Positions 12,001 to 50,389 are shown, counted from the first letter of the stretch. The stretch is 64,000 nucleotides of DNA from Synechococcus sp. (GCA_047285535.1 JBJBDC010000001.1:128136-192135), one strand, 5' to 3'. The notes: generated from the sequence alone by a model not told the origin. Made by a program: numbers and translations.

Positions 12001-15000
12001 GATGAGGAAAGCGCCAGAGATATCGAGGCTGTTGCTAGCGGAGGCGTGATCGCCATCGGCATCGGTGATGGTGTCAGTGCGTGTGATGCTGAGGACGTTG
12101 TTGTTGAAGGAGAGTTGATCGCCTGTGCCTGATTTGCTGGGGTCTGAATGTTGTAGATCCTGAGAGGAAGAGAAAGTGGCTTGGCCGGATGTTGGATCGA
12201 GAGTGATTTGAAGAGCGTTGGATCCGTTTGGGTTAGGAGAGTTTGAGTTGCCAACAAGCCCGACGACGTTGTCTCCGGATTGGAAGAGGAAGATGTGATT
12301 GCCGTTGTGATCCTGGAGTCCAGAATCAACGCCATTGTGATTTAAAGAGAAAGAGAATGCGGTTGTGAGGGAGGCATTTTGATCGACGGCATTGGAGTTT
12401 CCAGTGGAGAAATTGGAGGAGAAGTTATGGGAAGCAGCGCCATTGATGCCGCCTTGTTCAGTGACAACAAAGTCAGGAATTGTGCCTGTGGTGGCAGGTG
12501 GAGTAATGGATGGAGCGGTGTCATTGATGAGGAAAGCGCCAGAGATATCGAGGCTGTTGCTAGCGGAGGCGTGATCGCCATCGGCATCGGTGATGGTGTC
12601 AGTGCGTGTGATGCTGAGGACGTTGTTGTTGAAGGAGAGTTGATCGCCTGTGCCTGATTTGCTGGGGTCTGAATGTTGTAGATCCTGAGAGGAAGAGAAA
12701 GTGGCTTGGCCGGATGTTGGATCGAGAGTGATTTGAAGAGCGTTGGATCCGTTTGGGTTAGGAGAGTTTGAGTTGCCAACAAGCCCGACGACGTTGTCTC
12801 CGGATTGGAAGAGGAAGATGTGATTGCCGTTGTGATCCTGGAGTCCAGAATCAACGCCATTGTGATTTAAAGAGAAAGAGAATGCGGTTGTGAGGGAGGC
12901 ATTTTGATCGACGGCATTGGAGTTTCCAGTGGAGAAATTGGAGGAGAAGTTATGGGAAGCAGCGCCATTGATGCCGCCTTGTTCAGTGACAACAAAGTCA
13001 GGAATTGTGCCTGTGGTGGCAGGTGGAGTAATGGATGGAGCGGTGTCATTGATGAGGAAAGCGCCAGAGATATCGAGGCTGTTGCTAGCGGAGGCGTGAT
13101 CGCCATCGGCATCGGTGATGGTGTCAGTGCGTGTGATGCTGAGGACGTTGTTGTTGAAGGAGAGTTGATCGCCTGTGCCTGATTTGCTGGGGTCTGAATG
13201 TTGTAGATCCTGAGAGGAAGAGAAAGTGGCTTGGCCGGATGTTGGATCGAGAGTGATTTGAAGAGCGTTGGATCCGTTTGGGTTAGGAGAGTTTGAGTTG
13301 CCAACAAGCCCGACGACGTTGTCTCCGGATTGGAAGAGGAAGATGTGATTGCCGTTGTGATCCTGGAGTCCAGAATCAACGCCATTGTGATTTAAAGAGA
13401 AAGAGAATGCGGTTGTGAGGGAGGCATTTTGATCGACGGCATTGGAGTTTCCAGTGGAGAAATTGGAGGAGAAGTTATGGGAAGCAGCGCCATTGATGCC
13501 GCCTTGTTCAGTGACAACAAAGTCAGGAATTGTGCCTGTGGTGGCAGGTGGAGTAATGGATGGAGCGGTGTCATTGATGAGGAAAGCGCCAGAGATATCG
13601 AGGCTGTTGCTAGCGGAGGCGTGATCGCCATCGGCATCGGTGATGGTGTCAGTGCGTGTGATGCTGAGGACGTTGTTGTTGAAGGAGAGTTGATCGCCTG
13701 TGCCTGATTTGCTGGGGTCTGAATGTTGTAGATCCTGAGAGGAAGAGAAAGTGGCTTGGCCGGATGTTGGATCGAGAGTGATTTGAAGAGCGTTGGATCC
13801 GTTTGGGTTAGGAGAGTTTGAGTTGCCAACAAGCCCGACGACGTTGTCTCCGGATTGGAAGAGGAAGATGTGATTGCCGTTGTGATCCTGGAGTCCAGAA
13901 TCAACGCCATTGTGATTTAAAGAGAAAGAGAATGCGGTTGTGAGGGAGGCATTTTGATCGACGGCATTGGAGTTTCCAGTGGAGAAATTGGAGGAGAAGT
14001 TATGGGAAGCAGCGCCATTGATGCCGCCTTGTTCAGTGACAACAAAGTCAGGAATTGTGCCTGTGGTGGCAGGTGGAGTAATGGATGGAGCGGTGTCATT
14101 GATGAGGAAAGCGCCAGAGATATCGAGGCTGTTGCTAGCGGAGGCGTGATCGCCATCGGCATCGGTGATGGTGTCAGTGCGTGTGATGCTGAGGACGTTG
14201 TTGTTGAAGGAGAGTTGATCGCCTGTGCCTGATTTGCTGGGGTCTGAATGTTGTAGATCCTGAGAGGAAGAGAAAGTGGCTTGGCCGGATGTTGGATCGA
14301 GAGTGATTTGAAGAGCGTTGGATCCGTTTGGGTTAGGAGAGTTTGAGTTGCCAACAAGCCCGACGACGTTGTCTCCGGATTGGAAGAGGAAGATGTGATT
14401 GCCGTTGTGATCCTGGAGTCCAGAATCAACGCCATTGTGATTTAAAGAGAAAGAGAATGCGGTTGTGAGGGAGGCATTTTGATCGACGGCATTGGAGTTT
14501 CCAGTGGAGAAATTGGAGGAGAAGTTATGGGAAGCAGCGCCATTGATGCCGCCTTGTTCAGTGACAACAAAGTCAGGAATTGTGCCTGTGGTGGCAGGTG
14601 GAGTAATGGATGGAGCGGTGTCATTGATGAGGAAAGCGCCAGAGATATCGAGGCTGTTGCTAGCGGAGGCGTGATCGCCATCGGCATCGGTGATGGTGTC
14701 AGTGCGTGTGATGCTGAGGACGTTGTTGTTGAAGGAGAGTTGATCGCCTGTGCCTGATTTGCTGGGGTCTGAATGTTGTAGATCCTGAGAGGAAGAGAAA
14801 GTGGCTTGGCCGGATGTTGGATCGAGAGTGATTTGAAGAGCGTTGGATCCGTTTGGGTTAGGAGAGTTTGAGTTGCCAACAAGCCCGACGACGTTGTCTC
14901 CGGATTGGAAGAGGAAGATGTGATTGCCGTTGTGATCCTGGAGTCCAGAATCAACGCCATTGTGATTTAAAGAGAAAGAGAATGCGGTTGTGAGGGAGGC

Positions 15001-18000
15001 ATTTTGATCGACGGCATTGGAGTTTCCAGTGGAGAAATTGGAGGAGAAGTTATGGGAAGCAGCGCCATTGATGCCGCCTTGTTCAGTGACAACAAAGTCA
15101 GGAATTGTGCCTGTGGTGGCAGGTGGAGTAATGGATGGAGCGGTGTCATTGATGAGGAAAGCGCCAGAGATATCGAGGCTGTTGCTAGCGGAGGCGTGAT
15201 CGCCATCGGCATCGGTGATGGTGTCAGTGCGTGTGATGCTGAGGACGTTGTTGTTGAAGGAGAGTTGATCGCCTGTGCCTGATTTGCTGGGGTCTGAATG
15301 TTGTAGATCCTGAGAGGAAGAGAAAGTGGCTTGGCCGGATGTTGGATCGAGAGTGATTTGAAGAGCGTTGGATCCGTTTGGGTTAGGAGAGTTTGAGTTG
15401 CCAACAAGCCCGACGACGTTGTCTCCGGATTGGAAGAGGAAGATGTGATTGCCGTTGTGATCCTGGAGTCCAGAATCAACGCCATTGTGATTTAAAGAGA
15501 AAGAGAATGCGGTTGTGAGGGAGGCATTTTGATCGACGGCATTGGAGTTTCCAGTGGAGAAATTGGAGGAGAAGTTATGGGAAGCAGCGCCATTGATGCC
15601 GCCTTGTTCAGTGACAACAAAGTCAGGAATTGTGCCTGTGGTGGCAGGTGGAGTAATGGATGGAGCGGTGTCATTGATGAGGAAAGCGCCAGAGATATCG
15701 AGGCTGTTGCTAGCGGAGGCGTGATCGCCATCGGCATCGGTGATGGTGTCAGTGCGTGTGATGCTGAGGACGTTGTTGTTGAAGGAGAGTTGATCGCCTG
15801 TGCCTGATTTGCTGGGGTCTGAATGTTGTAGATCCTGAGAGGAAGAGAAAGTGGCTTGGCCGGATGTTGGATCGAGAGTGATTTGAAGAGCGTTGGATCC
15901 GTTTGGGTTAGGAGAGTTTGAGTTGCCAACAAGCCCGACGACGTTGTCTCCGGATTGGAAGAGGAAGATGTGATTGCCGTTGTGATCCTGGAGTCCAGAA
16001 TCAACGCCATTGTGATTTAAAGAGAAAGAGAATGCGGTTGTGAGGGAGGCATTTTGATCGACGGCATTGGAGTTTCCAGTGGAGAAATTGGAGGAGAAGT
16101 TATGGGAAGCAGCGCCATTGATGCCGCCTTGTTCAGTGACAACAAAGTCAGGAATTGTGCCTGTGGTGGCAGGTGGAGTAATGGATGGAGCGGTGTCATT
16201 GATGAGGAAAGCGCCAGAGATATCGAGGCTGTTGCTAGCGGAGGCGTGATCGCCATCGGCATCGGTGATGGTGTCAGTGCGTGTGATGCTGAGGACGTTG
16301 TTGTTGAAGGAGAGTTGATCGCCTGTGCCTGATTTGCTGGGGTCTGAATGTTGTAGATCCTGAGAGGAAGAGAAAGTGGCTTGGCCGGATGTTGGATCGA
16401 GAGTGATTTGAAGAGCGTTGGATCCGTTTGGGTTAGGAGAGTTTGAGTTGCCAACAAGCCCGACGACGTTGTCTCCGGATTGGAAGAGGAAGATGTGATT
16501 GCCGTTGTGATCCTGGAGTCCAGAATCAACGCCATTGTGATTTAAAGAGAAAGAGAATGCGGTTGTGAGGGAGGCATTTTGATCGACGGCATTGGAGTTT
16601 CCAGTGGAGAAATTGGAGGAGAAGTTATGGGAAGCAGCGCCATTGATGCCGCCTTGTTCAGTGACAACAAAGTCAGGAATTGTGCCTGTGGTGGCAGGTG
16701 GAGTAATGGATGGAGCGGTGTCATTGATGAGGAAAGCGCCAGAGATATCGAGGCTGTTGCTAGCGGAGGCGTGATCGCCATCGGCATCGGTGATGGTGTC
16801 AGTGCGTGTGATGCTGAGGACGTTGTTGTTGAAGGAGAGTTGATCGCCTGTGCCTGATTTGCTGGGGTCTGAATGTTGTAGATCCTGAGAGGAAGAGAAA
16901 GTGGCTTGGCCGGATGTTGGATCGAGAGTGATTTGAAGAGCGTTGGATCCGTTTGGGTTAGGAGAGTTTGAGTTGCCAACAAGCCCGACGACGTTGTCTC
17001 CGGATTGGAAGAGGAAGATGTGATTGCCGTTGTGATCCTGGAGTCCAGAATCAACGCCATTGTGATTTAAAGAGAAAGAGAATGCGGTTGTGAGGGAGGC
17101 ATTTTGATCGACGGCATTGGAGTTTCCAGTGGAGAAATTGGAGGAGAAGTTATGGGAAGCAGCGCCATTGATGCCGCCTTGTTCAGTGACAACAAAGTCA
17201 GGAATTGTGCCTGTGGTGGCAGGTGGAGTAATGGATGGAGCGTCATCATGAATTGTTAATGATGAGCCAAGATCAATTTGAGCACTTGATGTTGCACTGT
17301 CTCCATCCTTATCTGTAATTGTATCAGTACGTCTTAGCGCTAATAATCCCGGAGATAGATGTATCTCTTCATCAGTATTTGTGGGGTCTGGATGGATGAC
17401 CGCTCGTTCGCTGGTGAAAGTGATGTCTCCTGCTTGAGTTGTGCTGATCTTTAAAGCTTCTTTGCCTGTTTTTTCAAGTATTCCTGTGATATTCCCGTTT
17501 TGAGTATTGACATGCAACAGGATTCGTTCCCCAGTTTCGCTATCGATTAATCCAGAGAACACTCCATCTTTGCTGAGATTCAGCTCATAACTTGTTTTAA
17601 ATGTTCCTGATCCATCGGCGCCGAATTGATGGCTGCCGCTGAAGAGCGAGGCGAAGGATTGCGTGGAGGTGCCGCCGGCTTGCCCGATGAAGGTTTCATC
17701 GACCCCAAGGACTGGGGGATGGCCATTTGTCGTGAGCTGAAGGCTAGGGGCGTCGTCTTTGAAGTGGAACACCTGGCCGATGCCGATTGTTGCCGAAGCA
17801 CTGTCCCCACCAGCGCTCACAGCGGTGCCGGTGATTGTGATCAGGTTTGGGTTCTTGAGTGTGATGCTTTCATCTGTGTTGTTTGGATCGGGGTGAACAA
17901 TCGAGCGCAGTTGATCCAGCTCAATGTTCCCTACTTGATCCGTTGTGATGTGAAAGCCTTCCAGCCCACCAGGCGTCCGTCCGCTGATGCTTCCATCAGA

Positions 18001-18804
18001 GTTATGGAACAACAGCAGGTGTTGACCCGTGGCTTCATCCACAAGGCCACTGTCGGTGCCTGGCTGAACCACTCCGATCTTGAAGGTCATGCCACCGATG
18101 CCTTTGCCGTTCACCCCGTAGGTGGCGGAGAAGTAGGCGCCGAAGTTTGCGGTTGCATCTGTGGTGAGATCGGTTTCATCAACCGTGAGATCTTTTGGTG
18201 CCCCTGCCACGGTGATTGTGGCGCGATCAGGACTAGGCCCAGGACCTGGCTTAGGAGTCTCTCCAGGTGAATGGGGGTCGTGATTAGATTTTGGAGACCC
18301 CCCGGGGGTGTTGTGATCGGGTGTTTGTCTGCCAGAAGGACCGGGGAATGGGACATTTCCTTCTCCTCCTCCAGGCCTTTCTGCTCCGAGCACAGCAGGG
18401 CCATCAATTTGCGAATCAACTGCGAAGGGCGTTTGAAAGTCCTGGGTACCTAAGTCGCTGTCGCTTCCAATACTTCCACTACGTTCTGGATTATGCGGTA
18501 CACCTTCACTTGTAAGGGTGGGATTTTGTTGTTCGGGTAGTGCGCTACTAATCCATGGCCGATCGAGTGACGCATCGGGAAGGGAGCTGTTCCCCGATGG
18601 CGCTTGTTGTTCGTAATTTTGCCTGTTGTTGCTTGCTCCCTCGGGTAGGGATGTGAACACATCATCTCGCTGTTCGCGATCACCGTCGTGAAGATTGGCG
18701 AGATCGACGAGTCTCTTTAGTTTTTCTTCAAGAAGTTGACTTTGATCATTGTTATTCAGGATCCTAAAGGCCTCGTTTTGCGCAGCTGCGTTGTCGAGAG
18801 CCAT
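46..18804 (-). CDS. Giant (6252 aa) repetitive surface/adhesin-like protein, probable T1SS substrate: about 30 DUF5801-like repeats, a vWA (MIDAS) domain and an acidic C-terminal tail
   Basis: Uninterrupted 18.7-kb ORF. Repeat units carry DUF5801/T1SS-repeat-like motifs (VDETD, GADG, DSGL, HPD, TITDxDGDxAS, FxDDxPS). The vWA motifs are LVLDYSGSM, GTNH and IMTDG. The gene lies divergent to an ABC/HlyD operon. Confidence 0.9.
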   Translation of the reverse strand: MALDNAAAQNEAFRILNNNDQSQLLEEKLKRLVDLANLHDGDREQRDDVFTSLPEGASNNRQNYEQQAPSGNSSLPDASLDRPWISSALPEQQNPTLTSEGVPHNPERSGSIGSDSDLGTQDFQTPFAVDSQIDGPAVLGAERPGGGEGNVPFPGPSGRQTPDHNTPGGSPKSNHDPHSPGETPKPGPGPSPDRATITVAGAPKDLTVDETDLTTDATANFGAYFSATYGVNGKGIGGMTFKIGVVQPGTDSGLVDEATGQHLLLFHNSDGSISGRTPGGLEGFHITTDQVGNIELDQLRSIVHPDPNNTDESITLKNPNLITITGTAVSAGGDSASATIGIGQVFHFKDDAPSLQLTTNGHPPVLGVDETFIGQAGGTSTQSFASLFSGSHQFGADGSGTFKTSYELNLSKDGVFSGLIDSETGERILLHVNTQNGNITGILEKTGKEALKISTTQAGDITFTSERAVIHPDPTNTDEEIHLSPGLLALRRTDTITDKDGDSATSSAQIDLGSSLTIHDDAPSITPPATTGTIPDFVVTEQGGINGAASHNFSSNFSTGNSNAVDQNASLTTAFSFSLNHNGVDSGLQDHNGNHIFLFQSGDNVVGLVGNSNSPNPNGSNALQITLDPTSGQATFSSSQDLQHSDPSKSGTGDQLSFNNNVLSITRTDTITDADGDHASASNSLDISGAFLINDTAPSITPPATTGTIPDFVVTEQGGINGAASHNFSSNFSTGNSNAVDQNASLTTAFSFSLNHNGVDSGLQDHNGNHIFLFQSGDNVVGLVGNSNSPNPNGSNALQITLDPTSGQATFSSSQDLQHSDPSKSGTGDQLSFNNNVLSITRTDTITDADGDHASASNSLDISGAFLINDTAPSITPPATTGTIPDFVVTEQGGINGAASHNFSSNFSTGNSNAVDQNASLTTAFSFSLNHNGVDSGLQDHNGNHIFLFQSGDNVVGLVGNSNSPNPNGSNALQITLDPTSGQATFSSSQDLQHSDPSKSGTGDQLSFNNNVLSITRTDTITDADGDHASASNSLDISGAFLINDTAPSITPPATTGTIPDFVVTEQGGINGAASHNFSSNFSTGNSNAVDQNASLTTAFSFSLNHNGVDSGLQDHNGNHIFLFQSGDNVVGLVGNSNSPNPNGSNALQITLDPTSGQATFSSSQDLQHSDPSKSGTGDQLSFNNNVLSITRTDTITDADGDHASASNSLDISGAFLINDTAPSITPPATTGTIPDFVVTEQGGINGAASHNFSSNFSTGNSNAVDQNASLTTAFSFSLNHNGVDSGLQDHNGNHIFLFQSGDNVVGLVGNSNSPNPNGSNALQITLDPTSGQATFSSSQDLQHSDPSKSGTGDQLSFNNNVLSITRTDTITDADGDHASASNSLDISGAFLINDTAPSITPPATTGTIPDFVVTEQGGINGAASHNFSSNFSTGNSNAVDQNASLTTAFSFSLNHNGVDSGLQDHNGNHIFLFQSGDNVVGLVGNSNSPNPNGSNALQITLDPTSGQATFSSSQDLQHSDPSKSGTGDQLSFNNNVLSITRTDTITDADGDHASASNSLDISGAFLINDTAPSITPPATTGTIPDFVVTEQGGINGAASHNFSSNFSTGNSNAVDQNASLTTAFSFSLNHNGVDSGLQDHNGNHIFLFQSGDNVVGLVGNSNSPNPNGSNALQITLDPTSGQATFSSSQDLQHSDPSKSGTGDQLSFNNNVLSITRTDTITDADGDHASASNSLDISGAFLINDTAPSITPPATTGTIPDFVVTEQGGINGAASHNFSSNFSTGNSNAVDQNASLTTAFSFSLNHNGVDSGLQDHNGNHIFLFQSGDNVVGLVGNSNSPNPNGSNALQITLDPTSGQATFSSSQDLQHSDPSKSGTGDQLSFNNNVLSITRTDTITDADGDHASASNSLDISGAFLINDTAPSITPPATTGTIPDFVVTEQGGINGAASHNFSSNFSTGNSNAVDQNASLTTAFSFSLNHNGVDSGLQDHNGNHIFLFQSGDNVVGLVGNSNSPNPNGSNALQITLDPTSGQATFSSSQDLQHSDPSKSGTGDQLSFNNNVLSITRTDTITDADGDHASASNSLDISGAFLINDTAPSITPPATTGTIPDFVVTEQGGINGAASHNFSSNFSTGNSNAVDQNASLTTAFSFSLNHNGVDSGLQDHNGNHIFLFQSGDNVVGLVGNSNSPNPNGSNALQITLDPTSGQATFSSSQDLQHSDPSKSGTGDQLSFNNNVLSITRTDTITDADGDHASASNSLDISGAFLINDTAPSITPPATTGTIPDFVVTEQGGINGAASHNFSSNFSTGNSNAVDQNASLTTAFSFSLNHNGVDSGLQDHNGNHIFLFQSGDNVVGLVGNSNSPNPNGSNALQITLDPTSGQATFSSSQDLQHSDPSKSGTGDQLSFNNNVLSITRTDTITDADGDHASASNSLDISGAFLINDTAPSITPPATTGTIPDFVVTEQGGINGAASHNFSSNFSTGNSNAVDQNASLTTAFSFSLNHNGVDSGLQDHNGNHIFLFQSGDNVVGLVGNSNSPNPNGSNALQITLDPTSGQATFSSSQDLQHSDPSKSGTGDQLSFNNNVLSITRTDTITDADGDHASASNSLDISGAFLINDTAPSITPPATTGTIPDFVVTEQGGINGAASHNFSSNFSTGNSNAVDQNASLTTAFSFSLNHNGVDSGLQDHNGNHIFLFQSGDNVVGLVGNSNSPNPNGSNALQITLDPTSGQATFSSSQDLQHSDPSKSGTGDQLSFNNNVLSITRTDTITDADGDHASASNSLDISGAFLINDTAPSITPPATTGTIPDFVVTEQGGINGAASHNFSSNFSTGNSNAVDQNASLTTAFSFSLNHNGVDSGLQDHNGNHIFLFQSGDNVVGLVGNSNSPNPNGSNALQITLDPTSGQATFSSSQDLQHSDPSKSGTGDQLSFNNNVLSITRTDTITDADGDHASASNSLDISGAFLINDTAPSITPPATTGTIPDFVVTEQGGINGAASHNFSSNFSTGNSNAVDQNASLTTAFSFSLNHNGVDSGLQDHNGNHIFLFQSGDNVVGLVGNSNSPNPNGSNALQITLDPTSGQATFSSSQDLQHSDPSKSGTGDQLSFNNNVLSITRTDTITDADGDHASASNSLDISGAFLINDTAPSITPPATTGTIPDFVVTEQGGINGAASHNFSSNFSTGNSNAVDQNASLTTAFSFSLNHNGVDSGLQDHNGNHIFLFQSGDNVVGLVGNSNSPNPNGSNALQITLDPTSGQATFSSSQDLQHSDPSKSGTGDQLSFNNNVLSITRTDTITDADGDHASASNSLDISGAFLINDTAPSITPPATTGTIPDFVVTEQGGINGAASHNFSSNFSTGNSNAVDQNASLTTAFSFSLNHNGVDSGLQDHNGNHIFLFQSGDNVVGLVGNSNSPNPNGSNALQITLDPTSGQATFSSSQDLQHSDPSKSGTGDQLSFNNNVLSITRTDTITDADGDHASASNSLDISGAFLINDTAPSITPPATTGTIPDFVVTEQGGINGAASHNFSSNFSTGNSNAVDQNASLTTAFSFSLNHNGVDSGLQDHNGNHIFLFQSGDNVVGLVGNSNSPNPNGSNALQITLDPTSGQATFSSSQDLQHSDPSKSGTGDQLSFNNNVLSITRTDTITDADGDHASASNSLDISGAFLINDTAPSITPPATTGTIPDFVVTEQGGINGAASHNFSSNFSTGNSNAVDQNASLTTAFSFSLNHNGVDSGLQDHNGNHIFLFQSGDNVVGLVGNSNSPNPNGSNALQITLDPTSGQATFSSSQDLQHSDPSKSGTGDQLSFNNNVLSITRTDTITDADGDHASASNSLDISGAFLINDTAPSITPPATTGTIPDFVVTEQGGINGAASHNFSSNFSTGNSNAVDQNASLTTAFSFSLNHNGVDSGLQDHNGNHIFLFQSGDNVVGLVGNSNSPNPNGSNALQITLDPTSGQATFSSSQDLQHSDPSKSGTGDQLSFNNNVLSITRTDTITDADGDHASASNSLDISGAFLINDTAPSITPPATTGTIPDFVVTEQGGINGAASHNFSSNFSTGNSNAVDQNASLTTAFSFSLNHNGVDSGLQDHNGNHIFLFQSGDNVVGLVGNSNSPNPNGSNALQITLDPTSGQATFSSSQDLQHSDPSKSGTGDQLSFNNNVLSITRTDTITDADGDHASASNSLDISGAFLINDTAPSITPPATTGTIPDFVVTEQGGINGAASHNFSSNFSTGNSNAVDQNASLTTAFSFSLNHNGVDSGLQDHNGNHIFLFQSGDNVVGLVGNSNSPNPNGSNALQITLDPTSGQATFSSSQDLQHSDPSKSGTGDQLSFNNNVLSITRTDTITDADGDHASASNSLDISGAFLINDTAPSVDPSKVGTLSPLVTDDDTLNVNAATSLSSLFSSAFTPGADGTQSIAYSLDLSAQDANSGLHALNPSGGPIQGPEILLHRDSNGVIHGYPSGGKSDGSEDLFTITIDGKNNLVLDQIKPIWQDNTSSNNEQTLLTALPNTLKITASITDQDGDSASTSIDASSCIFAFQDSGPSVDPSKVGTLSPLVTDDDTLNVNAATSLSSLFSSAFTPGADGTQSIAYSLDLSAQDANSGLHALNPSGGPIQGPEILLHRDSNGVIHGYPSGGKSDGSEDLFTITIDGKNNLVLDQIKPIWQDNTSSNNEQTLLTALPNTLKITASITDQDGDSASTSIDASSGIFAFQDSGPSVDPSKVGTLSPLVTDDDTLNVNAATSLSSLFSSAFTPGADGTQSIAYSLDLSAQDANSGLHALNPSGGPIQGPEILLHRDSNGVIHGYPSGGKSDGSEDLFTITIDGKNNLVLDQIKPIWQDNTSSNNEQTLLTALPNTLKITASITDQDGDSASTSIDASSGIFAFQDSGPSVDPSKVGTLSPLVTDDDTLNVNAATSLSSLFSSAFTPGADGTQSIAYSLDLSAQDANSGLHALNPSGGPIQGPEILLHRDSNGVIHGYPSGGKSDGSEDLFTITIDGKNNLVLDQIKPIWQDNTSSNNEQTLLTALPNTLKITASITDQDGDSASTSIDASSGIFAFQDSGPSVDPSKVGTLSPLVTDDDTLNVNAATSLSSLFSSAFTPGADGTQSIAYSLDLSAQDANSGLHALNPSGGPIQGPEILLHRDSNGVIHGYPSGGKSDGSEDLFTITIDGKNNLVLDQIKPIWQDNTSSNNEQTLLTALPNTLKITASITDQDGDSASTSIDASSGIFAFQDSGPSVDPSKVGTLSPLVTDDDTLNVNAATSLSSLFSSAFTPGADGTQSIAYSLDLSAQDANSGLHALNPSGGPIQGPEILLHRDSNGVIHGYPSGGKSDGSEDLFTITIDGKNNLVLDQIKPIWQDNTSSNNEQTLLTALPNTLKITASITDQDGDSASTSIDASSGIFAFQDSGPSISMGNASVSTTQHPQTSTPPSTGTTTITTTTIFDAHQNIGLVLDYSGSMGWSNGHQDPDNANTHSKIHQQLLASAHLIKQAFENAGYKVTTSQNGLTDLNDWKLEPLAGHTPGNVHLGAAIFGASAQTQSVTIDDTNYGRPHILASINNLLHNVKISGTNHTEAWKAAQNITTSWQQSNISDQHHTPSGAEIKTDTNMVIMTDGETSKGQDMISSNSYVLTTYNEGQHQYGLNNISGWNSRNKATSELKITYTDSAGIQHEQKLTRAQIDGMINDHNNPLGTRGHGYSNSHAVRDNNGDIIGWLGFPKVIDPNINHPHHHHPNPIEANPLVFTPNEASGITITSIENNKSSGPNNEITPIMSSGFNSQGAQLSHNLDQALKTLDQQVGHETPNVIGVGIVDRTNNSIGSQLQSLFKGSLPDGSSFEQVNSHDTLDGSLSQQIQHAVQQSFQNVDVHLDFNFDPGSDDDLAATSLQNNGVVEFTLEQKSTLLGTGGHSPVQAFAATFGGNQNTSNVKDLGNGEFEIKINGLGTFTINTGNTVLSSGSHNGTIDFKADPGVSIGRNLDLTLSIKDADGDTKSVNFTLPKFNTNVTPSQTQHDEPDQNGFTADISVIANDALASAQADSDTEATLAALISLGLKTDHDDVDLSQSTQDDGSQLITRTIHTDQGDILETITDPQNGNAPSLQLDVSGLDADTQKDLQATIQAQTSSSASESKPGQLDSVLSDATQSPPAIDGHSLADAISDLQQLDADAIAALNGQDTSTNSADESSLSGDAALTPLPQDPSDVPVTSMEDAFASPQQTDDDVMAPPDLSDTSQTAAPLPDNSTQDQDLSLLNT
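2573..5683 (-). repeat. Intragenic tandem repeat B: 6 copies of a 519-bp (173-aa) unit
   Basis: Shadow ORFs recur with a 519-bp period (2898, 3417, 3936, 4455, 4974, 5493). One substitution was seen, at 5196. Confidence 0.95.
5686..17242 (-). repeat. Intragenic tandem repeat A: 22 copies of a 525-bp (175-aa) unit, identical at protein level
   Basis: 525-bp period from tggagcggtgtcatt at 5686 to 17236 (22 x 525 = 11550 bp). Identical shadow ORFs recur in every copy. Confidence 0.97.
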
Positions 18805-18940
18805 GGTGACTTGGAACAGACATTTTGTTTCAACATATAGACCTCCTATGAGCGATGCTCAGAATTAACAAGAATTTTCGCTAGGGGTTAATGCTGGTCT
18901 TACAGGGTGATAGCCGTCATTATTCAAATCAAGATATTTA
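18805..18940. promoter_or_regulatory. Divergent promoter region shared by the giant gene and the T1SS operon
   Basis: 136-bp AT-rich gap between head-to-head genes. It contains a minus-strand AGGAGG at 18842-18847. Confidence 0.55.
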
Positions 18941-20581
18941 ATGGGCGCTTCCATGAATATTAAGACGGTATTGAATAGTCTTTCAAGGCAATCATTCCTT
19001 ACGTCATTGTTGGCACCGTTTCATTCGCGTGATGTTCGGATTGTGGTTGCCGCATCGGTTGCGATCAATCTGATTGTCCTAGCGATTCCTCTTTACATCA
19101 ATCGCATTTACACATCAGTCGTTCCTCAGCAGGCCAGCGACAGCCTCGCAGGCATCACTCTGCTTCTGGCTGCAGTTTTAGTTCTTGATGTTGTTCTCAA
19201 GGTGTTGCGTGCTTGGGTGGTGACTTGGCTGGCAGCCTCGACTGAACATCGTTTGCGAATGGTTGCCGTTCGTTCTGTGCTCGGGAGTGAGCCGAATGCC
19301 GTGCGCACACAACCTCTCAAGGCCAGGATGGCTCAGTTGCGCAGTCCAACTGTGTTGCGCAATCAACTTGAGCAGCAATGGCTGGTGCGTTATGTGGACC
19401 TTCCCTTCTCCTTGGTGTACTTGCTTTTTCTCGGGTTGATTGGCGGCTGGTTGATGATTCCCCCACTGGTTTTGGCACCTTTTTTTGTGCTTGTGGCACG
19501 GCGTGCCGCTTCCGACGTGGTGGCTAGCACACGAGCGCATCACGATCTGGAGGTCAGCCGAAATCAGATGGTGGTTAACGGGCTTGGACTTTCCCCCACG
19601 ATCAAGACACTCAATCTGGAGGGCTTTTTGATTCGACGGCTCGAACCCTTGCAGGAATCTCTTAGCCGGAGAAGTTATGAAAAAGAATCCGCAACGGCAA
19701 GACTTCAGAATCTCTCTGCCTTGTTTTCTCAACTCAACCAACTGCTCATCGTGAGTCTTGGTGCTTGGCTGGTGATACAGCAAGATCTTTCGACAGGTGC
19801 TCTTGCTGCCTGCACCTTGCTCAGTGGTCAAGTTGCAGCTCCTCTTGGCAAATTATTTGCAGCTGATGGTCAGCAGGCCGCTCTTGAGCAGGCCAATTAT
19901 GACTATCAGCAACTGATTGATCTTCCTCAGGAACAGAATCTTCTCGTCGGAGCTGATCAAACACCTATTGACACAACCTTGTCGTTTCTTGGCAAAGAAC
20001 TGCTACCTGGACAGCTCATGGTCCTTGTCGGTGGGCATCCTGGGCAGTCCACTGCGTTGCTTGATGCCATCCAGGTGGCTGAGGACAATCCTGTCTTAGG
20101 TCTTGCATTTGGAAAGCAATCGCTCTCGACATTCCGTAAAACCTGGCTGAGACGTTCCTTGGCTCGATTGAAATCCTCGCCAGAGCCATTCCGCGGCACC
20201 CTGCTTGAGTCGTTGACAGGCTTTGAGTTAAATACCCGATCTTCTGAAGTTGTGGCCTTATGTCAAGAGCATGGGGTGTCGTCTCTTATTCAGGCTCTGC
20301 CCAGGGGCTACAACACCACGATTGGAGAAAGCCAAGATTTTCCCCTTTCCCTCGGGTTGCGTTTTCGCATCAGTGTGATTCAGGCCTTGTTGGACAAGCC
20401 TTCGGTGTTGCTTTTGGATGGCACCTTCCCACAGCTCACTCCTGACTGTCTGAGTTGGTTTCTGTCTCTGAAGATTCCTTGTTCCAGACTGATCGCTTTG
20501 CAAAGGGCCATTCCAGGACTCCCCTCTGAAATGACCTGTCTTCAGTGGAACGGTGATCGGTTGCAGGAGGTGGCGTTGTGA
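18941..20581 (+). CDS. Type I secretion ABC transporter (TMD plus degenerate NBD)
   Basis: HlyB/PrtD-like TMD (INLIVLAIPLYINRIY, DLPF, LSTGALAACTLLS). The NBD remnant has ALPRGYNTTIGE, LSLG and LLLDG. Walker A reads GGHPGQST. Confidence 0.85.
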   Translation: MGASMNIKTVLNSLSRQSFLTSLLAPFHSRDVRIVVAASVAINLIVLAIPLYINRIYTSVVPQQASDSLAGITLLLAAVLVLDVVLKVLRAWVVTWLAASTEHRLRMVAVRSVLGSEPNAVRTQPLKARMAQLRSPTVLRNQLEQQWLVRYVDLPFSLVYLLFLGLIGGWLMIPPLVLAPFFVLVARRAASDVVASTRAHHDLEVSRNQMVVNGLGLSPTIKTLNLEGFLIRRLEPLQESLSRRSYEKESATARLQNLSALFSQLNQLLIVSLGAWLVIQQDLSTGALAACTLLSGQVAAPLGKLFAADGQQAALEQANYDYQQLIDLPQEQNLLVGADQTPIDTTLSFLGKELLPGQLMVLVGGHPGQSTALLDAIQVAEDNPVLGLAFGKQSLSTFRKTWLRRSLARLKSSPEPFRGTLLESLTGFELNTRSSEVVALCQEHGVSSLIQALPRGYNTTIGESQDFPLSLGLRFRISVIQALLDKPSVLLLDGTFPQLTPDCLSWFLSLKIPCSRLIALQRAIPGLPSEMTCLQWNGDRLQEVAL

Positions 20582-22716
20582 TCTCCCGCGATGTGTTCTT
20601 CCAGAGGCTCTCTGAAAGTGAATCTTCATCCGCCAGGCTTCTGCCAAAGCTTCTTGATGCTCTGGCATGGTCAGGTGAACTTGTTCAGCTGCGCAATGCT
20701 CTGAGTGGTAGTCCGCTCCACATGGATGGAGTTGATCTTCTCAATACTCTTGCCAATCTTGGTTTCCGATGGGATGTGCGGCGTTTTCGTGGTGTACTTA
20801 CCCCTGAACGTCTACCTCCTCTCGACTTCCCTGTTCTGATTCGCTCGCAGTTCAGCAGTTCTTTTCAGTTGGTCGAAAATGAAGAGGAGCTTCGTCAGGC
20901 TTTGCCGAACCTGCGTCGTCTTTTTGTCTATAGCTTTCGATTCGAGCCGCAGAGATTGGCAGAACAGCGCCAGTGGTTTCAAGCGCTTGTGCTCCGTTTT
21001 CGCGGCAGCATCGCTGAGCTTTACGTGATGAGCCTGCTGATCGCTCTGCTCACGTTAGTTCTGCCCTTTTACATTCGAGCGGTTTACAACCTGGAGATTC
21101 CCGGCGGTCAGATGGGCGATTTGCTGGGGCTTCTTCCCTTTGCACTTCTCGGTGTTCTGCTGCAGGTTTGGTTGACAAACCGCCGTCAGGTTCGGCTTGC
21201 TGATCTTGGCGCTGAGCTTGACATCACGATCAGTATTCGAGTGCTTGAGAAGCTGATGTTGTTGCGTTTACCACAGTTGGAGCGGTACACGCCTCTCTCG
21301 CTTGCGAGTCGTCTACGCAGTTTTCAGGGTCTTCGTTCCTATGTCACAGGGCCTTTGGCTCAAGCCGCTTTGGACCTCCCTTTCATCGTGATTTATCTGA
21401 TCGCGATAGCAGTGATGAGTGTTCCTCTCATGGTGCTCACATTGGTGATGGTCCTAGTTTGTTTTGGTGGAGTTTATTTGGTGGGTCGGATTGCTCGCTC
21501 TATCCAGCAGCCTTTGAGCCGTAACCCCTCCAATCTTGAGCCATTACTTCTCGATCTTCTTGATCATTACGAGCGAATCAAGCGGACCGGTATGGAACGG
21601 ATCTGGCATGCACGCATCGAAAGGGCATCGTCCGAAAGCGCTATTCAAGGTCTTGGTCCGATGCGCCTGCAACAGTTGTTGGCCATTCTCACCGGAGAGT
21701 TTTCTCAGCTCACGGGGGCACTGGTGCTTGCTACGGGCGCAGGGCTCGCGATTGCTGGTGGCAGCGGTATCGAACTGGGCACCATGATTGCGGCAATGTT
21801 TTTCGTCTGGCGTGTGTTTCGGCCGATCCAGATGGGTTATCAGGCCCTCAGTCGCTGGTCGCAGATCAAGCCCAACCTTGATCAACTCAACCGTTTCATG
21901 GCGGCTTCAGATGTTGAGCCCAGTACAACAGTCAGCCAACCCTGGGTTCTGCCAATGCCGGCTGGTCAGGTGGAATTTCAAAATGTCACCTTGCGCCTCA
22001 ATGCTCTGCAGGAACCATCGTTGACACAGGTCAATTTCAAGATAGATGCGGGCAATCTCGTTGTGATTACGGGCCCTGAGGGAGCAGGTACGTCTTCGGT
22101 TCTTCGCTTGCTGGATGGGCAGATTCAACCTGGAAGTGGTGTGATTCGCATCGATGGAACTGACTCGCGTCAGTTTCCATTGATGCAGTTACGACAATCC
22201 ATTGATTTCCTGTCGGACCGTCCCGGTGTGTTCTCGGCCACGTTGCGCGAAAACATGCGAATCGCTGATCCATTTGCTGACGATGCCTTAATCATCAAGA
22301 GCCTTGAATCCATGGGGCTTCAAGTTCTCCTTGAAAACTCCGGATTAGATCGACCTCTTGGAATGAGCGGTAGGGATGCTCTGCCTCTGCATCAACTTCA
22401 AGCCGTTGCGATTGCAAGGATGTTGCTGAAGGAGCAGTCCATTTTCCTTCTTGATCATCCGTTCCGCCTGCTTGATCAACAAGGCTCTGATGCGCTCCTC
22501 CGCCTTTTTGAACAGCGTCGAGGTCAGATCACCATGATCGTTGCTTCAGATGAGCCTCGTTTGCTTGAAATTGCAGACCAAATCATTTTGATGAAGGCAG
22601 GCACTGTGAGTTTCTCTGGTACACCTCAGGATCTAATGGCTGCTCAGAAAAAAGCTGCTATGCAACAAGCTGCAATGGCTGCGATGGGTGGTGGCTCGTC
22701 GCTAGGAACGTCATGA
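20578..22716 (+). CDS. Type I secretion ABC transporter with N-terminal C39-like extension (degenerate NBD)
   Basis: GTG start overlaps the upstream TGA, with AGGAGG just before it. The TMD has DLPF and GTMIAAMFFVWR. NBD motifs read GPEGAGTS, AIARMLL and FLLDHP. Confidence 0.85.
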   Translation: MISRDVFFQRLSESESSSARLLPKLLDALAWSGELVQLRNALSGSPLHMDGVDLLNTLANLGFRWDVRRFRGVLTPERLPPLDFPVLIRSQFSSSFQLVENEEELRQALPNLRRLFVYSFRFEPQRLAEQRQWFQALVLRFRGSIAELYVMSLLIALLTLVLPFYIRAVYNLEIPGGQMGDLLGLLPFALLGVLLQVWLTNRRQVRLADLGAELDITISIRVLEKLMLLRLPQLERYTPLSLASRLRSFQGLRSYVTGPLAQAALDLPFIVIYLIAIAVMSVPLMVLTLVMVLVCFGGVYLVGRIARSIQQPLSRNPSNLEPLLLDLLDHYERIKRTGMERIWHARIERASSESAIQGLGPMRLQQLLAILTGEFSQLTGALVLATGAGLAIAGGSGIELGTMIAAMFFVWRVFRPIQMGYQALSRWSQIKPNLDQLNRFMAASDVEPSTTVSQPWVLPMPAGQVEFQNVTLRLNALQEPSLTQVNFKIDAGNLVVITGPEGAGTSSVLRLLDGQIQPGSGVIRIDGTDSRQFPLMQLRQSIDFLSDRPGVFSATLRENMRIADPFADDALIIKSLESMGLQVLLENSGLDRPLGMSGRDALPLHQLQAVAIARMLLKEQSIFLLDHPFRLLDQQGSDALLRLFEQRRGQITMIVASDEPRLLEIADQIILMKAGTVSFSGTPQDLMAAQKKAAMQQAAMAAMGGGSSLGTS

Positions 22717-22757
22717 GTCGTTGTTGATCCCAGCGCCACAAGTTTTCTATCGCTTCT

Positions 22758-24134
22758 TTGACGATGTCGAGCTCTTCATCTACGTCTCCTTCTTCAACAA
22801 TGACTGATTCAAAGTCGCAGTCCGAGGCCTCTTTATGGCAAATGCAGGCTGATGAAACAGACCAAGCCTTTGGGCATGGTCGTCGTGCCGAAGCTTTGTC
22901 TCTTGAAGCGGGTCAAGTCCCTCCAAATTTGACTCGATGGTTGCTTGGTACTACGGCTGTGATGGCTGGATCTGTTCTTGTTTCGGCTTTGATTCCCATT
23001 CAGAATTACGTTGTGGCCTCAGGGGAGATAGAGCCAGCTGGAGAGATCCAGAAGGTGCAGCATTTAGAAGGCGGAATTATTCGTGCTCAGTTAGTTGAGG
23101 AGGGTGAGAAGGTTCGAAGTGGTGAAGTATTGCTCAAGCTCAGTGAAGGGCAGATTGGATCACAGCAGCAGCAGACGGCGACGCGTGTCACCAATCTCAC
23201 GTTGGAACAGCGTGAGCTACGTAAAGCGCTCGGTCAGGAGGCTCTCAATACTGATGTTCCTACTCCATCGTCACCATCTGAAGAGGTCGCGAGGGCCTTT
23301 TCTGATTTGCTCAAGCAAAAAGCACTTGATATTCAACGCCAAATTGATGTTGCTGATCAGCGTCTTGCCACTCTTCAGGCCAAACGAGAGGAATATCTCG
23401 ATGAAGTCGCTCTTCTGAAGGAGCAAACCAAATCCTATGAATTCCTCGATAATCAAGGGGCAATTTCTCATAACGATGTACTAGAGGCTGAACGCAGAAT
23501 CGCTTCAACCGAAACACTGCTTGCCGAACTCGATGGCACGATTAAAGAAACTGAGACGCAACGATTTGAGCTTCGTTCCAAGTTGCGTACCGATATTCTT
23601 GAGCAATTGGCTGATGTCACGAGTGAAAAAGCAGAGTTGCAGAGCGTTCTCGGTGAGCAACTTGATGCAGTAGAGCGTTTACAAGTGCGCTCCCCAGTTG
23701 ATGGAATTGTCAAGTCCTATACGGTGAAAACGCTGGGCGGTGTTATTGCGCCTGGCAGTGTTGTTGCAGAAGTTGTGCCTGTAGGTGATCAACTTGAAGG
23801 ATTTCTACGTGTCAAACCTGCTGATATTGGCAATGTTCAGAAAGGCCAGAGGGTGCAGCTCAAGGTGTTGGCTTATGACTACAGCCGTTACGGAACAATC
23901 CCAGGTGTAGTTAGATCAATTTCTGCGAGCACGTTTCAAGATGAAAAGACTGGCGAGCCCTATTACAAAGTCCGTGCTGCATTGTCGCGTGATTATGCAG
24001 GCAAGAATGAAGGCTTAAATCTTTTGGTTCCTGGTATGACTCTTACGGCTGACATCCTCACGGATCGTACTAATTTGCTGATGTATTTATTGGGGCCTAT
24101 CAGGCATGGGCTTGGCAACGCTCTTCACGAATAA
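22758..24134 (+). CDS. HlyD-family type I secretion membrane fusion protein
   Basis: Single N-terminal TM. Motifs VQHLEGGI, VRSPVDGIV, GGVIAPG, YDYSRYGTIPG, PGMTLTADI and YLLGPI. The start may be the ATG at 22764 or 22800. Confidence 0.92.
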   Translation: MTMSSSSSTSPSSTMTDSKSQSEASLWQMQADETDQAFGHGRRAEALSLEAGQVPPNLTRWLLGTTAVMAGSVLVSALIPIQNYVVASGEIEPAGEIQKVQHLEGGIIRAQLVEEGEKVRSGEVLLKLSEGQIGSQQQQTATRVTNLTLEQRELRKALGQEALNTDVPTPSSPSEEVARAFSDLLKQKALDIQRQIDVADQRLATLQAKREEYLDEVALLKEQTKSYEFLDNQGAISHNDVLEAERRIASTETLLAELDGTIKETETQRFELRSKLRTDILEQLADVTSEKAELQSVLGEQLDAVERLQVRSPVDGIVKSYTVKTLGGVIAPGSVVAEVVPVGDQLEGFLRVKPADIGNVQKGQRVQLKVLAYDYSRYGTIPGVVRSISASTFQDEKTGEPYYKVRAALSRDYAGKNEGLNLLVPGMTLTADILTDRTNLLMYLLGPIRHGLGNALHE

Positions 24135-50386: not shown

Positions 50387-50389
50387 TTT

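Follow-up and report, generated by a model that had tools for sequence, protein, structure and literature searches.

In type I secretion systems (T1SS) of the HlyB/HlyD/TolC type, a homodimer of the ATP-binding cassette (ABC) protein HlyB with two consensus ATP sites serves a large, repeat-rich cargo that has no signal peptide and an acidic C-terminus, and the outer membrane component is encoded elsewhere. Each ATP site of an ABC protein is composed of Walker A, Walker B, Q-loop and H-switch of one nucleotide-binding domain (NBD) and the signature motif of the partner NBD. To our knowledge, all ABC exporters characterised so far, those of T1SS among them, depend on one ATP site or more that can hydrolyse. 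Heterodimeric exporters such as TM287/288, TmrAB, BmrCD and CydDC combine two half-transporters with asymmetric NBDs, in which Asp or some other residue stands for the catalytic Glu and signature and H-switch deviate, yet one consensus hydrolysing site is always kept. The consensus site of such exporters energises transport and the degenerate site is structural or regulatory, as stated in the part of PMC7756269 covered here, and the peroxisomal transporter CTS loses its function if both sites are made degenerate, according to the part of PMC4652930 covered here. In the present study, we analysed a stretch of 64,000 nucleotides (hereafter the window; G000:C1:128136-192135) from the single-contig, 3.03 Mb genome of Synechococcus sp. 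(G000). It carries two ABC exporter genes, ABC-1 (18941..20581, plus strand) and ABC-2 (20578..22716, plus strand), and an HlyD-family adaptor gene (22758..24134, plus strand), all three with intact open reading frames (ORFs), next to a divergent gene for a giant repeat protein (46..18804, minus strand). What is new about this triad, as far as the motifs of its ABC pair tell, is that a T1SS-like pair seems to fail the defining ATPase features, unlike the known heterodimers that keep one consensus site.

In other respects the locus resembles described T1SS. ABC-2 shows the order known from HlyB, with a Cys-less, probably C39-like domain (aa 1-135), a transmembrane domain (TMD; aa 136-455) and an NBD (aa 456-712), and the putative cargo is again large and repeat-rich, without a signal peptide and with an acidic C-terminus. 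However, HlyB forms a homodimer, while here two different half-transporters are found, and HlyA-type substrates lack a conserved N-terminal motif such as the one present in the putative cargo of this locus. An operon of two ABC proteins and one membrane fusion protein, divergent from the gene of a giant repeat substrate, is also found in the Vibrio MARTX system (RtxB, RtxD, RtxE, TolC), where rtxHCA and rtxBDE are divergent, the TolC gene lies elsewhere and neither ABC protein is dispensable, as stated in the part of PMC3034196 covered here. This likeness is one of layout only: the MARTX order is B-D-E, in contrast to ABC-ABC-adaptor in the window, and RtxB and RtxE are both described as ATP-binding proteins or ATPases, with no degeneracy mentioned in that part of the article (PMC3034196). 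The LapA/LapB/LapC/LapE adhesin T1SS shares with our locus a giant adhesin-like cargo of Ca2+-binding-type repeats and offers the idea of a tether retained at its N-terminus. Lap retention is based on a folded N-terminal plug under the control of LapG and LapD, genes for which were not seen here, though no search aimed at them was made, and LapB is presumably a canonical ATPase. Several members of the family described here are named 'LapB' by JGI. In full-text searches, which did not extend to the papers on WH8102 motility mutants, we found neither a T1SS ABC pair with two degenerate sites nor this picocyanobacterial module described. Reportedly, McCarren and Brahamsha found an ABC/HlyD-type transporter to be needed for SwmA/SwmB localisation in WH8102, which may or may not belong to the present family.

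Predicted Degeneration of Both ATP Sites

The original prediction, which was made from the sequence of the window, had read GGHPGQST, LSLGL, LLLDG and IALQR in ABC-1 and GPEGAGTS, LPLHQ, FLLDH and VASDE in ABC-2 as replacements of the catalytic motifs. All of these motifs are present and in register with solved ABCB1-type structures, to which they were aligned with phmmer, and the register agrees across three independent alignments, so that a misassignment of the motifs was not found. ABC-1 (546 aa) consists of a six-helix exporter TMD (aa ~30-335) and a degenerate NBD (aa ~336-546) that is shortened at its N-terminal strand and at its C-terminal end, as delimited by Pfam, alignment and an AlphaFold2 (AF2) model. 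Its vestigial Walker A GGHPGQST (aa 364-371; 20030..20053, plus strand, as are all motifs below) lacks Lys and aligns with GNSGGGKST. The signature is reduced to LSLGL (aa 469-473; 20345..20359) opposite LSGGQ, Walker B reads LLLDG (aa 490-494; 20408..20422) opposite LLLDE and thus has Gly for the catalytic Glu, and the H-switch region IALQR (aa 518-522; 20492..20506) shows no His at any position of the segment.

ABC-2 (712 aa) deviates in its NBD motifs as well. Its Walker A GPEGAGTSS (aa 499-507; 22072..22098) aligns with GSSGSGKST and has Thr for Lys and an acidic third residue. Beyond the original prediction, the Q-loop Gln is lost too (FLSDRP opposite LVSQEP; 22207..22224). The signature is LPLHQ (aa 602-606; 22381..22395) opposite LSGGQ, Walker B is FLLDH (aa 623-627; 22444..22458) opposite LLLDE, with His for the catalytic Glu, and the H-switch region IVASDE (aa 654-659; 22537..22554) aligns with IIAHR and has no His. 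At the sequence level, Walker A Lys, Walker B Glu, LSGGQ and the H-switch His are consequently absent from both ABC proteins, and the alignment to solved exporters shows that the A-loop aromatic residue is lost together with the Q-loop Gln, the H-switch His and both signatures.

Because every ATP site is completed by the signature of the partner NBD, an ABC-1/ABC-2 dimer would be left with two degenerate composite sites. Site 1, formed by the ABC-1 P-loop and the ABC-2 signature, has no P-loop left, while site 2, formed by the ABC-2 P-loop and the ABC-1 signature, is without Lys, Gln, Glu and His and has gained an acidic residue in its P-loop. Judged by their sequence, both composite sites appear to lack the residues needed for a canonical ATP hydrolysis cycle.

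Both proteins are still recognised as ABC exporters. The six-helix TMD (PF00664) scores above cut-off in ABC-1 (49.8 bits) and ABC-2 (35.6 bits), each followed by a C-terminal NBD fold, and the NBD profile PF00005 gives 65.1 bits for ABC-2 and 16.8 bits for ABC-1, the latter under the cut-off of 25. Both NBDs are confidently predicted as NBD folds: the AF2 model of ABC-1 has a mean pLDDT of 83.1, with most 10-residue blocks of the NBD at 75-93 and the last blocks at 60-75, and that of ABC-2 has a mean pLDDT of 79.4. The modelled ABC-2 NBD superimposes on the NBDs of TAP1 and ComA with a root mean square deviation of 2.1-2.3 Å over 230-236 residues (Z ~27.8; TAP1: 2.2 Å, 234 aa). In Foldseek the top matches of the ABC-2 model are full-length, namely PCAT1 with E 1.3e-30 over 721 columns and HlyB over 700-705 columns. 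The alignment with HlyB 8dck_A covers residues 16..693 of the model, exporters are matched at Z ~28, and heterodimeric exporter structures with one degenerate site are also among the fold matches. Family alignments show conservation of the P-loop glycines, of the Walker B Asp and of a block following the Q-loop (GTLLxNxTxF in ABC-1, TLRENx in ABC-2). In exporters, this block faces the coupling helices of the TMD.

We aligned 20 TMD-NBD exporters of G000 and scored five features (Lys, Gln, signature, Glu and His). Fourteen of the 20 are fully canonical, three deviate at one position and one keeps Lys only, while the Walker A Lys is missing solely in ABC-1 and ABC-2. Given the 14 canonical exporters, the double degeneracy is not a genome-wide trait or drift. 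Another exporter of this genome, located outside the window (G000:C1:854260-856011, minus strand; 583 aa), is canonical except for Asp in place of the Walker B Glu.

Heterodimer Prediction and Fused Relatives

The original prediction had described intact ORFs, a translational coupling of the two ABC genes through a GTGA overlap with a Shine-Dalgarno sequence, and a normal HlyD, and all of this was borne out. The coupling element of the window (20566..20581, plus strand) comprises GGAGGT (20566-20571), located 7 nt 5' of the ABC-2 GTG start, a spacer and the GTGA in which the ABC-2 start overlaps the ABC-1 stop. At all 31 junctions analysed (the window and 30 other loci) the ABC-1 stop overlaps an ATGA or GTGA start of ABC-2, and in most of them a purine-rich, GGAGGT-like stretch lies just 5' of the overlap. 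The same overlap is present in two further loci, L043 and L044.

At E<=1e-3, a search with ABC-1 over 1.84 billion representative sequences gave 10,020 proteins, of which 257 reach E<=1e-30. Among the best 150 matches are fused proteins of ~1300 aa, for example P0135 (1301 aa), which occurs in metagenome-assembled genomes (MAGs) of Rhodospirillales. The N-terminal half of P0135 matches ABC-1 best (164 vs. 71 bits), and its C-terminal half matches ABC-2 best (222 vs. 147 bits), over residues 19-686 and thus including the N-terminal domain. The module order of P0135 equals the gene order of the window in one chain, which supports a heterodimer. Together, the conserved overlap and the fused homologues support the assignment of ABC-1 and ABC-2 as a predicted heterodimer.

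The fused proteobacterial homologues, for which no family name exists, have the same order of an ABC-1-like half, a C39-like domain and an ABC-2-like half. They share the block after the Q-loop (GTxLxNLTxF type) with ABC-1 and its relatives, and their signatures are non-canonical in both halves. However, each of their halves still has the Walker A Lys, the Q-loop Gln, the H-switch His and the D-E pair, all of which the split cyanobacterial forms have lost. Because these catalytic residues are kept in both halves, the fused forms are probably active ATPases. Setting aside 27 fused or fragmentary proteins, the best 150 matches of ABC-1 include 123 single-half relatives of 480-800 aa, of which only one shows all five features, 14 show none and 108 lack an S-x-G signature. 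The pair of the window is therefore no isolated case: in a wider, uncurated family, it stands at the extreme of a graded loss.

Phylogeny and Distribution

A word-indexed search with ABC-2 scored 8000 candidates, 193 of which passed E<=1e-3, and its full-length relatives form a block from 87% to 29% identity. None of 26 aligned family members (0/26) has the catalytic Glu, the Q-loop Gln, the H-switch His or a signature of canonical form, and three (3/26) have the Walker A Lys. Scanning species-representative genomes delivered 32 loci. One of them, L042 from an actinobacterium (Thermoleophilaceae), turned out to be an unrelated pair of ordinary ABC exporters; it was rejected as a family locus and dropped from all counts. 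In the 31 remaining loci the triad arrangement is kept as far as the contigs reach, with ABC-1 visible in 30 and HlyD in 30.

The family falls into two clades. Clade 1 comprises the window and loci L011-L020, with 48-76% identity to ABC-2, and clade 2 comprises L021-L041, with 27-32% identity to ABC-2, including a named marine Synechococcus chromosome. Both clades are sister groups (SH-aLRT 100 each) in a tree of 32 rows, from which ten truncated or near-duplicate locus rows were left out and which was midpoint-rooted for drawing only. Together they are split (100) from the C-terminal halves of the fused proteobacterial proteins and three canonical exporters of G000. Three MAG records with the triad (L015, L034 and L040) are titled Chitinophaga pinensis or Acidovorax caeni. 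L015 and L040 nest within the picocyanobacterial clades of the tree and L034 has the triad and the clade-2 motifs; these records are probably mislabelled bins.

In ABC-1 the P-loop Lys, the D-E pair and the H-switch His are each absent from both clades (0/27). ABC-2 differs between them. Clade 2 keeps GxxGxGK[ST] at all 21 loci, shows D-D for D-E and an [LI]PxG[VI] signature, and has no His. Among the 11 clade-1 loci the Lys position is occupied by T in four, by R in five and by S and K in one each, with I also seen at this position in the sequence alignment, and among the 10 readable loci the Glu position holds H in three, Q in five, and S and E in one each. An acidic residue (E or D) at the third P-loop position is found in 24/24 clade-1 sequences and in 0/2 from clade 2, which corresponds to 11/11 versus 0/21 if counted by locus. 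Since both clades show the loss of Glu, His, Gln and signature, this loss predates their split, while the loss of Lys is specific to the clade of the window, with the position now drifting.

We further determined the distribution of the module with an ABC-1 family profile in 301 sampled genomes of the family, a strong match being defined as at least 414 bits. Such matches occur in 38 of the 301 genomes, including G000, and the next class, at ~227 bits, consists of canonical exporters of ~1000 aa. Four of 16 other genomes of the same genus carry the triad, and one of these genomes, G109, has one triad of each clade. The secretion module is thus an accessory, lineage-specific trait of picocyanobacteria.

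Purifying Selection on the NBDs

The closest orthologue of the triad is locus L044 of G109, with identities of 80.8% for ABC-1, 87.6% for ABC-2 and 89.0% for HlyD, and its motifs are in the same degenerate state as those of the window. We compared both by the NG86 and YN00 methods, with dS at 0.8-2.0 across partitions and methods. The resulting omega (dN/dS) values were, for NG86 and YN00, respectively, 0.071 and 0.086 in the ABC-1 TMD, 0.189 and 0.160 in the ABC-1 NBD, 0.079 and 0.098 in the N-terminal C39-like domain of ABC-2, 0.037 and 0.036 in the ABC-2 TMD, 0.106 and 0.058 in the ABC-2 NBD, and 0.047 and 0.037 in HlyD. Thus, the combination of canonical orthologues and relaxed selection, which would speak for decay of the window copy, was not found: the NBDs of both proteins stand at omega 0.06-0.19.

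Close pairs of clade 2 gave 0.034-0.065 for the ABC-2 NBD and 0.053-0.166 for the ABC-1 NBD. If all clade-2 pairs with dS 0.1-1.0 are taken, the median omega of ABC-2 is 0.279 for the NBD vs. 0.307 for the TMD (96/171 pairs) and that of ABC-1 is 0.457 for the NBD vs. 0.311 for the TMD (126/171 pairs; range up to 0.98), where the absolute values are inflated by codon bias and the crude method and the comparison between domains is the useful part. As dN/dS against L011, L012, L013, L015, L017-L020 and L043 is mostly saturated, our conclusions rest on L044 and the close clade-2 pairs. The NBDs are under purifying selection, which is weaker than that on the TMDs in the clade of the window.

The Adaptor and the Probable C39-Like Domain

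The HlyD protein (458 aa) matches the T1SS adaptor model TIGR01843 with 276.9 bits, above the cut-off of 208.65, and HlyD_3 with 66.8 bits, and is therefore a HlyD-family type I secretion periplasmic adaptor. In contrast, the T1SS-specific ABC models stay under their cut-offs throughout: TIGR03375 yields 190.2 bits for ABC-1 and 307.9 bits for ABC-2 vs. 693.1, and the same holds for all others, including TIGR01842 (PrtD) and TIGR01846 (HlyB). The N-terminal domain of ABC-2 has no Cys within aa 1-140 and no Pfam C39 match within aa 1-136. It is the best-conserved part of the protein outside the TMD, with invariant or near-invariant positions at 22-62, and is likely a C39-like, non-proteolytic domain as defined in the part of a review covered here. 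Six TolC-like genes of the OEP family are present in the genome, none of them in the operon.

The Divergent Giant Protein as Candidate Cargo

The putative cargo (46..18804, minus strand; 6252 aa) consists of an N-terminal motif, a linker of ~150 aa rich in P, G and S, ~27 near-identical repeats of 175 aa plus five of 173 aa (DUF5801), and a C-terminal region that is acidic. Repeat markers occur at 22 positions spaced by 175 aa and at five spaced by 173 aa, and DUF5801 (PF19116) is matched with 368.5 bits in the first 1000 aa and with 157.1 bits in the last 1184 aa. The N-terminus has no hydrophobic signal peptide and the protein no match to RTX repeats in Pfam or NCBIfam. Acidic, S/T/P-rich C-termini are found in all three complete cargos. 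The ~27 repeats of 175 aa are nearly identical in protein sequence, and spurious ORFs of 172 aa recur every 525 bp in another frame of the same strand. This near-identity points to a very recent expansion or homogenisation and makes the copy number dependent on the assembly. After the last repeat, at aa ~5453 (about nt 2400-2450), LVLDYSGSM resembles the metal ion-dependent adhesion site (MIDAS) motif of vWA domains, while no vWA family match was obtained in Pfam or NCBIfam.

A divergent gene for a large surface-type protein lies upstream in all eight clade-1 loci with an upstream flank. The type of this neighbour varies: it contains DUF5801 in L011, cadherin-like or Big_9 domains in L012, L015 and, by eye, L043, and is P/T-rich or unassigned in L017 and L019. 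Regardless of the repeat type, the clade-1 neighbours have an N-terminal block in common (8/8 loci), which in the window spans aa 28-58 (KLKRLVDLANLHDGDRE...LPEGAS; 18631..18723, minus strand) and is followed by an SLPDA-type motif and then by ~150 aa of P/G/S-rich low complexity. The block is supported by alignment and by BLAST pairs with E 1e-4 to 1e-10; L044 has the same motif and L043 and L015 have variants. A loose regular expression for its core gave one match in the six-frame translation of the whole genome G000, at the N-terminus of the giant protein. Because the expression was derived from these sequences, its matches at the loci are not independent, while the single match in the genome is a fair check.

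In clade-2 triads, giant ORFs follow on the same strand, with LapA, DUF5801, VWA_2 and RTX domains in L028 and DUF7507/DUF11 in L039. What the N-termini of these cargos have in common is an acidic/RK block other than that of clade 1, along with a similar P-E/G-G-(A/N)-(S/T) motif. A predicted complex of ABC-2 aa 1-135 with cargo aa 1-80 scored 0.02 against a mark of 0.32, which gives no answer either way. With regard to the non-canonical exporter dedicated to the giant protein that the original prediction had envisioned, the tie to the giant protein is strengthened by the eight clade-1 loci and the shared N-terminal motif, as is the part on degeneracy, both sites being degenerate by their motifs. 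The three alternatives of that prediction, energisation by other means, a partner ATPase encoded elsewhere and a tether, are all still candidates; no ATPase gene is conserved in cis at the clade-1 loci. Taken together, these findings suggest a module that is dedicated to the giant repeat protein of the divergent gene.

Beside two clade-1 triads, glycosyltransferase genes of the GT2 family were observed (L017 10441-12090, L019 10455-12068 and L017 151-1785), one of them with TPR repeats, which hints that some cargos are glycosylated. Clade-2 triads have a divergent ORF of 223-226 aa just upstream of ABC-1 (L039 4290-4970, L028 4383-5054 and L022 4395-5066, all on the minus strand), the copies of which are 44-60% identical. 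It has no Pfam match and no homologue in G000. Its Leu/Gly-rich helical repeats might resemble the c-di-GMP-binding MshEN domain.

Possible Mode of Action and Alternatives

We favour the interpretation, with a probability of roughly 55%, that the triad is an accessory T1SS-like module for export or tethering of a giant adhesin-like cargo, in which the NBDs are kept as structural pseudo-ATPase domains and export is driven by other means than ATP hydrolysis in cis. Because both sites are degenerate, and because known heterodimers rely on their consensus site and CTS loses its function without one, we infer that the module cannot run the standard hydrolysis cycle. Its inner membrane part would be an obligate ABC-1/ABC-2 heterodimer, completed by the HlyD adaptor and a TolC-like channel encoded elsewhere. 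The NBDs would now act as structural counterparts to the coupling helices of the TMDs and offer surfaces for docking in the cytoplasm. The unfolded cargo might be threaded C-terminus first through the ABC/HlyD/TolC conduit, and the membrane potential and/or a folding of the repeats with Ca2+ outside the cell might bias its movement. The N-terminal motif and the long flexible linker would stay behind, bound by cytoplasmic domains, so that the giant protein would be tethered at the cell surface. ABC-exporter-fold TMDs can be proton-driven without NBDs, as in SbmA/BacA, and Ca2+-folding ratchets have been proposed for RTX proteins. The more far-reaching version of this idea is clearly more tentative: a natural T1SS without any ATP hydrolysis might exist here, with the pseudo-ATPase heterodimer as gated conduit and anchor, through which megadalton Ca2+-binding repeat proteins are pulled by membrane potential and/or an extracellular folding ratchet and tethered via their N-terminal motif and linker by the C39-like domain or the dead NBDs.

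Several points weigh against our interpretation. The label 'dead' is deduced from motif alignments, and the roles given to the proton motive force, the Ca2+ ratchet and the tether are proposals. Genes of the MotAB or ExbBD kind are absent from the operon. A full Walker A is present in clade 2, Lys in L015 and the protein P0013, and the D-E pair in L019. In addition, the NBDs evolve faster than the TMDs, with NBD/TMD ratios of dN against L011 of 2.3 (ABC-1) and 3.0 (ABC-2), and deep clade-2 pairs of the ABC-1 NBD reach an NG86 omega of 0.98, a value obtained with a crude method and with dS saturated or biased in GC-rich genomes. At one MAG locus each, ABC-1 (L018, 304-2555) and HlyD (L033, 9216-10628) are split into two ORFs, which are either assembly errors or true pseudogenes. 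Among 26 sequences, the glycines of the ABC-2 P-loop (G499, G502, G504) and D626 of Walker B show little or no variation, and together with the Walker A of clade 2 this suggests that some nucleotide binding may persist in the family.

From this last point one might speculate that a nucleotide still drives the system, with the ABC-2 P-loop binding ATP or another NTP in a non-canonical way and slow hydrolysis, or switching by binding only as at the degenerate site of classical heterodimers, gating or driving the export of a rarely made giant protein. Besides the conserved glycines and D626, the GxxGxGK[ST] of clade 2 (21/21) with its strictly conserved D-D would fit, since a similar state is known from the degenerate half of exporters such as TM287/288 and TmrAB, and Arg stands at the Lys position in five of the 11 clade-1 loci. 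D500 of TmrB is discussed in the part of PMC8277102 covered here. However, for the clade of the window the same positions tell against such a role: the Lys position varies between T, S, R, I and K and the Glu position between H, Q, S and E, and this variability argues against a conserved chemical function, while the acidic P-loop residue is fixed in all 24 clade-1 sequences. The A-loop aromatic residue, Q-loop Gln, H-switch His and both signatures are gone, and the partner site on ABC-1 is without any P-loop, so that no consensus site would be there to reset the cycle. We thus regard a nucleotide-driven system as unlikely here, though more plausible for clade 2 than for the window. Energisation in trans, by co-assembly of the heterodimer with a canonical exporter such as a ~1000-aa cNMP/C39-type T1SS ABC protein that supplies ATP hydrolysis within a larger ABC/HlyD assembly, seems less probable still. 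Candidates are at hand, as the 14 fully canonical exporters of the genome include two of the ~1000-aa T1SS type, one with its own HlyD-like neighbour; proteins of this size are the next-best match in most sampled genomes, and the solved HlyB/HlyD complex (7sgr, 8dck) contains three ABC dimers. Yet no canonical ABC gene is conserved in cis at the clade-1 loci, and a mixed T1SS ABC assembly is not documented in the literature covered.

If the genes were non-functional relics on their way to pseudogenisation, one would expect some of what is seen: clade-1 NBDs that change 1.0-3.4 times faster in dN than the TMDs, a patchy spread over 38 of 301 genomes, and the split genes of the two MAG loci. What makes such decay highly improbable are the intact frames, the kept gene order and the 4-nt overlap at 31/31 junctions across clades that share only ~27-31% identity, together with the NBD omega of 0.06-0.19 against L044 and the confident NBD folds in both models. 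The variant that the motif loss is an artefact of alignment is opposed by the register found in three independent alignments and shares this low standing. Hence, pseudo-ATPase domains retained for structure, within a module that exports or tethers its cargo without hydrolysis in cis, remain the interpretation we prefer.

A conserved and selected family with both sites degenerate would be informative in each case, be it an ABC-fold machine powered otherwise, a non-canonical use of nucleotides or a scaffold that borrows an ATPase. Furthermore, the catalytic residues are still there in the fused forms of Proteobacteria, only the P-loop is left in clade 2 and nothing in clade 1; this natural graded series makes comparative biochemistry possible. 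Giant surface proteins of picocyanobacteria have been linked to motility and to interactions with grazers. The swappable cargo with its common N-terminal tag points to a dedicated display route for variable megadalton surface proteins in globally abundant phototrophs; SwmB is mentioned in the part of PMC4949707 covered here.

Further Features of the Window

The giant gene and ABC-1 are separated by an AT-rich, divergent intergenic region of 136 bp (18805..18940). A promoter scan gave no convincing consensus promoter within it; divergent promoters are presumed to lie there. Promoter, terminator and Rfam scans over 18.5-24.6 kb delivered nothing informative, and no Rfam element was found in the intergenic region. 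HlyD starts with TTG, with an in-frame ATG two codons 3' of it, and is followed downstream by psbC and psbD on the minus strand. Near clade-2 triads, a canonical ABC gene of 579 aa was considered as an ATPase in cis and rejected: it is a core gene, separated from the triads by tpiA and folP, and lies 205 kb away in G000.

The window contains a second, complete T1SS-like cluster (48983-55978, plus strand) in a low-GC island (GC 0.39-0.43 vs. ~0.52-0.55 in the flanks) between cysS and polA. It comprises, all on the plus strand, a TolC-like OEP gene (48983-50386), a 451-aa ORF without Pfam match that is probably an adaptor (50390-51745), a C39-peptidase ABC gene (51738-53843) and a second ABC gene (53816-55978). 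One ABC half keeps the Walker A Lys and is without Gln, signature, Glu and His, and the other is near-canonical, with only the H-switch His missing. By its motifs, this second cluster follows what looks like the usual pattern of one consensus site.

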